Notes under the pieces: generated by a model
Database searches by the model: none
What the model saw: only the letters and a program-made list of their open reading frames with translations
Told to the model about the DNA's origin: nothing
Program-made: the position numbers and the translations under genes
Virus record (IMG/VR): IMGVR_UViG_3300030116_002312
Location: 2,260 to 66,259 of that record
From: a virus
Length of the DNA: 64,000 nt
Reading direction: 5' to 3' (one strand)
In this document: piece by piece, positions 39,430-39,540 of the stretch
Numbering within the stretch: position 1 is the first letter of the stretch
Layout: every line of letters starts with the position of its first letter

Positions 39430-39461
39430 ATTGTGCTAAACAATACTTTTTACTATATTTA
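39430..39461 (+). promoter_or_regulatory. Bacteroidota-type promoter with no downstream plus-strand ORF
   Basis: ATTG-N20-TATATTTA, same spacing as other promoters. Confidence 0.55.
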
Positions 39462-39464
39462 ACT

Positions 39465-39540
39465 ATGTGAAACATATTCTGTTTTTCATGGTTTTTAGTT
39501 TGACAAACCCGTTGGCTCCCCGCTAGCGGGTTTTCTTTTT
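39465..39540 (+). ncRNA. Candidate trans-acting antisense sRNA (~75 nt)
   Basis: Own promoter and terminator; 39478-39501 matches 52441-52464 at 22/24, both differences giving G-U pairs with the mRNA. Confidence 0.6.
39505..39540 (+). terminator. Rho-independent terminator at convergence of modules
   Basis: AAACCCGTTGGC-TCCCC-GCTAGCGGGTTT then TCTTTTT; the G-U pairs form only on the plus strand. Confidence 0.85.

Follow-up and report, generated by a model that had tools for sequence, protein, structure and literature searches.

The cassette at the boundary of two convergent modules

We analysed a 64,000-nucleotide (nt) stretch of viral DNA, called the window below (positions 2,260–66,259 of IMG/VR record IMGVR_UViG_3300030116_002312), and focus here on a feature at 39,430–39,540 within a short intergenic cassette (39406–39543) that, judged from its sequence, is probably a new phage small RNA (sRNA). 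The window is A/T-rich (GC 25–36%). On the left of the cassette, an endolysin-like gene (38794–39405; phrog_3000, phrog_33083) closes the plus-strand module for structure and lysis. On the right, a convergent minus-strand module extends from 52452 down to 39539; many small genes occupy its 5' half, and these are followed by an exonuclease-like gene, a primase/helicase, a resolvase-like gene, a holin (39834–40223) and a gene for a protein of 97 amino acids (aa). An earlier note on this DNA had proposed that a stand-alone plus-strand sRNA encoded here silences a whole class of early mRNAs through their shared initiation motif. The elements of the cassette are as follows (L046, L050 and L068 are relatives that carry it).

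39406–39421, plus strand: A/T-rich conserved block TTGTTAATAAATTTTT, directly after the lysin stop codon; left edge of the cassette in alignment A1
39431–39433, plus strand: candidate -33 element TTG of a Bacteroidota-type promoter, invariant in 7/7 sequences of A1 and present in L068
39454–39461, plus strand: candidate -7 element TATATTTA; TATATTTG in L046 and TATCTTTG in L050, both the full TAnnTTTG consensus
39465–39541, plus strand: predicted sRNA of ~75 nt, with its 5' end placed from the -7 box and its 3' end from the T-run
39465–39489, plus strand: 5' hairpin of nine pairs with one internal mismatch and a 5-nt loop, from the fold and from pairing over eight variants
39478–39502, plus strand: invariant 25-nt core, antisense to the start of a gene of the early type, which reads CAAACTAAAAACC ATG AAAAACAGA on the minus strand
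39490–39504, plus strand: U-rich single-stranded linker GGUUUUUAGUUUGAC, the proposed seed, complementary to AACUAAAAAC(C/U)(C/U)
39505–39543, plus strand: intrinsic terminator (12-bp stem, 5-nt loop, T-run), shared with the upstream late lysin gene

The promoter-like boxes that the earlier note had described were found as stated, with a 20-nt spacer between the TTG and TATATTTA. The ~40 nt that follow are likewise free of any plus-strand open reading frame (ORF), the sole ATG in 39462–39504 running straight into TGA. The plus-strand terminator was also borne out: the hairpin at 39505–39533 has 12 pairs, six of them G-C, is followed by TCTTTTTATT, and is the strongest terminator-like site in 38500–53500. 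The predicted RNA would end at ~39541 and the stop codon of the 97-aa gene lies at 39539–39541, an overlap of about 3 nt at most. Folding of the predicted RNA gave -23.7 kcal/mol on the plus strand (z -4.2; 0/200 shuffles as good) and -14.9 kcal/mol on the minus strand (z -2.0). The linker was unpaired in the minimum free energy, centroid and consensus structures. With the covariance models of Rfam 15, which would cover c4-type phage antisense RNAs if these are curated there, no match at the gathering score was found in the whole window, and a scan of 39000–53000 gave no match at E<=1 on the cassette.

An inverted repeat, ATTGT-N5-ACAAT (39430–39444, plus strand), overlaps the -33 element, and by our own reading of A1 a 5-bp inverted repeat is kept at the -33 site in relatives with other spacer sequence. 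Possible roles are an operator or, within the lysin mRNA tail, a weak hairpin.

Conservation and strand specificity of the structure

Relatives were searched with the 97-aa protein and with the core as queries. The whole intergenic cassette was present in eight distinct variants from uncultured phages, namely that of the window (the same as L077) and those of L043, L044, L045, L046, L047, L050 and L068, always between the late lysin gene and the convergent 97-aa and holin genes. In six variants the upstream late gene codes for a non-homologous 165-aa protein, and homology begins exactly at its stop codon. This protein may also be a lysin, a guess from sequence and position made without a family search. 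The cassette appears to move as a unit, because homology starts at the stop of differing lysin genes. The last late gene has been replaced non-homologously at 39405/39406; the window and L068 have a 203-aa endolysin-like gene there, and the 165-aa protein, found in six relatives (L044–L050, L060–L066), carries an HCGN...GC motif.

Of 42 loci found via the endolysin, 41 had lysin and holin collinear and no cassette within 260 nt downstream of the lysin. A search with covariance model R1 of 58 sources (427,427 bases) returned known copies only, plus one weak match (E = 0.78). In the window, the holin (39834–40223, minus strand) and the lysin are on opposite strands, the holin being placed where the early/replication module ends. 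The lysin of 41 relatives at a greater distance (the L002–L042 set) is followed, on its own strand, by a holin of close similarity or by other genes. This comparison points to an inversion or a module rearrangement at the lysin/holin junction.

RNAalifold independently recovered the same two hairpins, the 5' hairpin and the terminator. Over the eight variants 99.4% of the 168 pair cells were paired, compared with 38–54% when partners were slid. G·U accounted for 26 cells and A·C for none; because G·U pairs are A·C mismatches on the minus strand, the fold works on the plus strand only. The 5' hairpin is paired in all cells of the eight variants, and its 5' arm has three substitutions, none of which breaks a pair (two from A-U to G·U, one from G·U to A-U). 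In the terminator, one pair has changed on both sides (G-C in two variants, A-U in six) and five further pairs vary on one side only with pairing kept. The core was invariant in 8/8 variants and forms the longest invariant run of the 1.39-kb alignment, beside genes in which 32/97 (97-aa gene) and 48/129 (holin) third codon positions were invariant, that is, 63–67% variable. The promoter spacer was 20 nt with no indel in any variant, while 7/20 spacer bases differ between the window and L044 (own count on A1). The conserved structure with its plus-only G·U pairs argues for a plus-strand RNA. After the core, the longest run of invariant positions in the alignment is one of 21 nt (40225–40245) just upstream of the holin start codon.

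The same conservation could be explained with no separate regulatory RNA. The locus would then be the 3' tail and terminator of the late lysin operon plus a retained junction repeat, left by recombination or serving as a site in the DNA (in module exchange or the binding of a protein, for example); shared recent ancestry or a role of the DNA would account for its conservation. This explanation fits the position of the cassette precisely on a module boundary, the onset of homology at the lysin stop codon in comparisons with relatives that have a different lysin, and the 41/42 loci of more distant relatives in which lysin and holin are collinear and the cassette is lacking. It also fits the two 24-nt copies (39478–39501 and 52441–52464) that stand as direct repeats around the whole 13-kb early module, the near-identical junction repeat families that join the early genes, and a promoter motif that was not significant on its own. 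It accounts poorly, however, for 25 invariant bases beside third codon positions that are 63–67% variable, for hairpin substitutions that obey the rules of a plus-strand RNA (26 G·U cells, no A·C), and for promoter boxes conserved over a varying spacer. We consider it unlikely.

A further explanation, which the earlier note had itself raised against the sRNA, is translation of a minus-strand mini-ORF at 39466–39490 (MKNRICFT, 8 codons), the start-like motif being its initiation region. The mini-ORF has a canonical start context, the same eight residues occur in 5/8 variants, and the substitution in L047 is synonymous. In the other three variants, however, it is not kept: it is frameshifted after codon 4 to 11 codons in two and read through to 26 codons in one. 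It also lies downstream of the last stop codon of the operon and of a hairpin, and the structural evidence favours the opposite (plus) strand. With no conserved reading frame, the cassette is not coding, and we regard translation of the mini-ORF as very improbable.

Complementarity to the starts of early genes

Segment 39478–39501 was confirmed to be near-identical to 52441–52464 (22/24 identical; the two mismatches are GG versus AA), at the start of the first early gene. The next best site for this 24-mer in the 64-kb window, at 50023, had five mismatches, and the opposite strand had none with fewer than six. The uninterrupted 24-bp duplex with two G·U pairs across the AUG of the first early gene (start 52452), reported in the earlier note, was reproduced. 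Its 15–19-nt matches at other starts were also recovered, at 50034 (19), 43731 (17) and 47872 (16); pairings of 15 contiguous nt (G·U allowed) were observed at 48310 and 44579. The strongest predicted targets, named from complementarity, are as follows.

52441–52464, minus strand: best predicted target, -12 to +12 of the first early gene (52213–52452); 24 contiguous pairs, two of them G·U; cofold energy -24.4 kcal/mol
50028–50046, minus strand: predicted target at the start of gene 49579–50034; 19 contiguous pairs; binding energy -18.1 kcal/mol
43729–43745, minus strand: predicted target at ATG 43731 of the gene before the primase/helicase; 17 contiguous pairs; binding energy -14.8 kcal/mol
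47869–47884, minus strand: predicted target at the start of gene 47663–47872; 16 contiguous pairs; binding energy -14.7 kcal/mol

The direct repeats formed by the two 24-nt copies flank the whole 13-kb minus-strand module, and recombination between them would delete it.

Complementarity was then compared between early and late gene starts, with gene sets made up of ATG-started ORFs of at least 45 aa from which overlaps were greedily removed; GTG and TTG starts were thereby dropped or replaced by internal ATGs (43731, 48310), and at least one doubtful ORF (start 47036) was kept. At least 13 contiguous pairs were found at 17/33 early start regions versus 2/26 late ones. The cofold binding energy, with the cost of opening the RNA included, averaged -10.4 kcal/mol at early starts versus -5.7 kcal/mol at late starts, and -8 kcal/mol or lower was reached at 23/33 early versus 4/26 late starts (Mann-Whitney p = 2e-5). 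The best duplex energy was reached by 1/300 mononucleotide shuffles of the RNA; the mean energy, and the number of targets at <= -17 kcal/mol (10), by 0/300. Similarly, in the relative G002 a cofold energy of <= -8 kcal/mol was obtained at 22/31 early start regions, and five other genes gave -4.3 to -6.1 kcal/mol.

The complementarity extends to many targets because the minus strand of the core copies the early start-junction repeat. The motif AACTAAAAAC, to which the linker is complementary, occurs nine times on the minus strand and once on the plus strand. One of the nine copies is that of the cassette; the other eight belong to the early module, where they sit at gene starts or upstream of them, and with these eight the motif ties for the commonest of 12,022 distinct 10-mers of the early strand. 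In four cassette-bearing relatives the counts on the early and the other strand were 6/0, 4/1, 3/0 and 2/1, the cassette copy included. Five relatives of 62–88 kb fetched via the lysin gene had zero to two copies in total, and a check for the cassette, confined to the stretches fetched from these records, found none. The AAACTAAAAAC motif before the 43731 gene was kept in 4/4 relatives examined. At about 20 small early gene starts in 46990–52470 (minus strand) there are near-identical junction repeat families of 20–50 nt, e.g. TAACTAAAAACAAATAAAATTATG and AACTATAAAACTATG.

We tentatively conclude, with somewhat less than even confidence, that the cassette encodes a conserved plus-strand sRNA of ~75 nt that is antisense to the early start junction and lowers translation of early genes. 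Host RNA polymerase would transcribe the RNA from the conserved candidate promoter of the Bacteroidota sigma-A type; this transcription, and the 5' end that it would set, we infer from the boxes. Late lysin transcripts would reach the same terminator, with the cassette sequence as their 3' tail. Pairing could then be seeded by the linker on the AACUAAAAAC motif of early mRNAs, and the duplex could grow across the AUG as the weak A-U/G·U hairpin opens, its 3' arm being complementary too. The invariant GG would pair with CC, CU, UC or UU before the AUG, fitting the variants seen. Ribosome loading on mRNAs that lack a Shine-Dalgarno sequence might thereby be blocked (compare the GibS sRNA as summarised in PMC7366714), and early-gene translation would drop as the RNA and the late transcripts build up. 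Silencing of early genes by the cassette RNA is thus plausible but unproven: the earlier claim that a whole early class is silenced held for complementarity to early starts, which was repeated in G002, and the regulation is what we infer from it.

A plus-strand RNA might also be real with targets other than the early genes of the phage, namely host mRNAs or, in cis, transcripts that read through from the convergent operon of the holin and 97-aa genes. Host mRNAs would fit a core that is antisense to the start of a generic Bacteroidota gene: a 20-mer from the core had 13 exact genome matches, all at ORF starts and nine of them in Bacteroidota, and 9/14 metagenome matches of a 21-mer were in unrelated contexts. 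On the other side, a 23-mer had no match in the genomes of 185,579 species, and the 13 matches of the 20-mer fall in varied, unrelated genes with no single host target emerging. Read-through of the convergent operon would carry a perfect complement, as with lambda OOP on cII, and is plausible given the weak minus-strand terminator hairpin (-14.9 kcal/mol), but the overlap with the 97-aa gene would be no more than about 3 nt. Relatives differ in their first early gene and yet share an invariant core, which suits either version; against both, the phage's own early starts are strongly enriched in the motif. Targets of these other kinds seem to us quite unlikely. The confidence that remains, after this and the other explanations weighed here, is left for something not considered.

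Several observations weigh against the sRNA acting on early genes. The first concern expression. A transcript of the predicted ~75-nt RNA was not observed. Four RNA-library runs from two studies had small word shares (0.05–0.10), and six short contig pieces were recovered (two at 39074–39379, one each at 39747–39899 and 39961–39997, and two at 40074–40230), none of them on 39412–39717; these pieces are assembled contigs from oligo-dT or standard cDNA libraries, which cannot show a 75-nt RNA, its ends or its strand, and are evidence neither way. In the window the -7 box ends in A where the consensus has G. The promoter pattern alone is no rarer than expected by chance (relaxed matches: 36 in the window versus 23.5 ± 4.6 in shuffles), and the lysin operon needs the terminator in any case. 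The idea of a stand-alone plus-strand sRNA is supported by the conserved boxes, the plus-only G·U fold, the invariant core and the lack of conservation of the mini-ORF, and not by the promoter pattern by itself. The eight variants are moreover close kin (mean column identity 91%), and covariation is thin, with one two-sided pair.

Other observations concern the targets. Part of the complementary stretch is tied up in the 5' hairpin. The antisense of other early starts pairs as well, with 12–13 targets at <= -17 kcal/mol (12 for that of 50034); the pairing thus stood out from shuffles (0–1/300 as good) and not from other early starts. Duplex scans gave comparable energies off gene starts, e.g. 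-28.9 kcal/mol in the late sense strand; window-wide, these scans have a high background and were not relied on. The expectation that the cassette would go together with early start motifs in related phages was met in part: the cassette occurs in eight variants and the motif is biased to the early strand, but the co-occurrence amounts to a single phylogenetic contrast and is weak. G002, the only relative with a complete early module, has another first early gene, no match to the 24-mer within three mismatches and no outstanding target among its early starts. The 24-bp duplex with the first early gene is lineage-specific, because G002 has no match. The first early gene has no relative in IMG/VR, and for this reason conservation of the 24-bp target was checked in G002 alone.

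Phage setting and comparison with known systems

Gene starts in the window lack Shine-Dalgarno sequences, and their leaders are A-rich. The minus-strand early module would be driven by one further element, which lies just upstream of the first early gene.

52480–52511, minus strand: consensus host-type early promoter, TTG-N-TATCTTTG

Strict TTG-N18-21-TAnnTTTG matches numbered four on the minus strand, and this one alone lies inside the early region. At the 3' end of the first early gene (52162–52239, minus strand), the RAGATH-1 hammerhead ribozyme family scored 28 bits (E = 0.36), below its gathering score of 56.3. In the structural module, a single ORF of 3987 aa spans 22715–34678 (plus strand). 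No tRNA or tmRNA genes were found in the window, and no integrase or repressor turned up among 20 window proteins scanned. By blastn, 38800–40300 had no match in 50,697 phage records. In tblastn searches with the primase/helicase, all relatives were below 40% identity, and they comprised Tenacibaculum phage JQ, Riemerella phage PJN03, Cellulophaga phi10:1 and Flavobacterium phages. The hosts of these nearest cultured phages are Flavobacteriales, which suggests the order of the host and nothing narrower.

To our knowledge, phage-encoded regulatory RNAs come almost only from enterobacterial and Pseudomonas phages. By term search, a 2025 review of phage-derived sRNAs (PMC12197685) contains no "Bacteroid..." word and no "early gene", and a full-text literature search (Flavobacterium, phage, sRNA, transcriptome) gave no such case among the matches listed. 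If expressed, the cassette RNA would give phages of Flavobacteriales-type hosts their first sRNA candidate. It would also be a case in which an RNA, by recognising an initiation motif common to the genes of a temporal class, controls that class in a phylum without Shine-Dalgarno sequences. The junction repeats of early genes, usually seen as recombination linkers, may then double as regulatory target sites.

The nearest bacterial parallel is GibS of Bacteroides thetaiotaomicron. According to PMC7366714, the Bacteroidota promoter consensus is TTTG at -33 and TAnnTTTG at -7, Bacteroidetes mRNAs lack Shine-Dalgarno sequences, canonical intergenic sRNAs of this group have a transcription start site and an intrinsic terminator, and GibS represses its targets by pairing with translation initiation regions. 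The cassette resembles GibS as described there in its candidate sigma-A-type promoter, intrinsic terminator, small predicted size and conserved single-stranded proposed seed, and the same kind of repression is proposed for it. In contrast, GibS is bacterial and shows no sequence relation to the cassette, the seed of which is in a linker 3' of the hairpin, not in the 5' portion, and the proposed targets of which, predicted only, are a repeated motif in many genes of one temporal class. Lambda OOP RNA (77 nt), as outlined in PMC12197685, is similar to the predicted cassette RNA in being phage-encoded, about 75 nt long, equipped with its own promoter (a candidate one in the cassette) and terminator, and convergent to an early-strand operon; OOP, however, overlaps the cII 3' end and acts in cis via RNase III, whereas the complementarity of the cassette lies 4–13 kb away. 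The cassette would not be a cis-antisense RNA of the OOP type, because it overlaps the convergent gene by about 3 nt at most.

The immunity RNAs c4 of P1/P7 and CI of P4 are trans-acting phage RNAs that pair with repeated sites in the phage's own early or antirepressor transcripts and cover ribosome binding sites. They are processed from longer transcripts of temperate phages and act on few sites in one leader; the cassette, which has no Rfam match at E<=1, is a stand-alone unit. MicL and DapZ of enterobacteria are sRNAs embedded in 3' untranslated regions that have their own promoter and share the terminator of the mRNA. The cassette RNA would likewise share the lysin terminator, so that its sequence would be present in two forms, as an sRNA and as the tail of an mRNA; it differs in that its candidate promoter follows the coding sequence instead of lying inside it, and in its phage setting. 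In T4, the RegA repressor and the RegB endoribonuclease are phage proteins that recognise a short motif common to the initiation regions of early mRNAs. The cassette would follow the same logic of class shutdown with an RNA instead of a protein. It is possible, if somewhat doubtful, that a lytic flavobacterial phage here uses one sRNA as the RNA counterpart of RegA, a global anti-initiation regulator with a seed that has co-evolved with the early start-junction motif, so that a temporal class would be shut off by pairing and the tail of the lysin mRNA would reinforce the effect.

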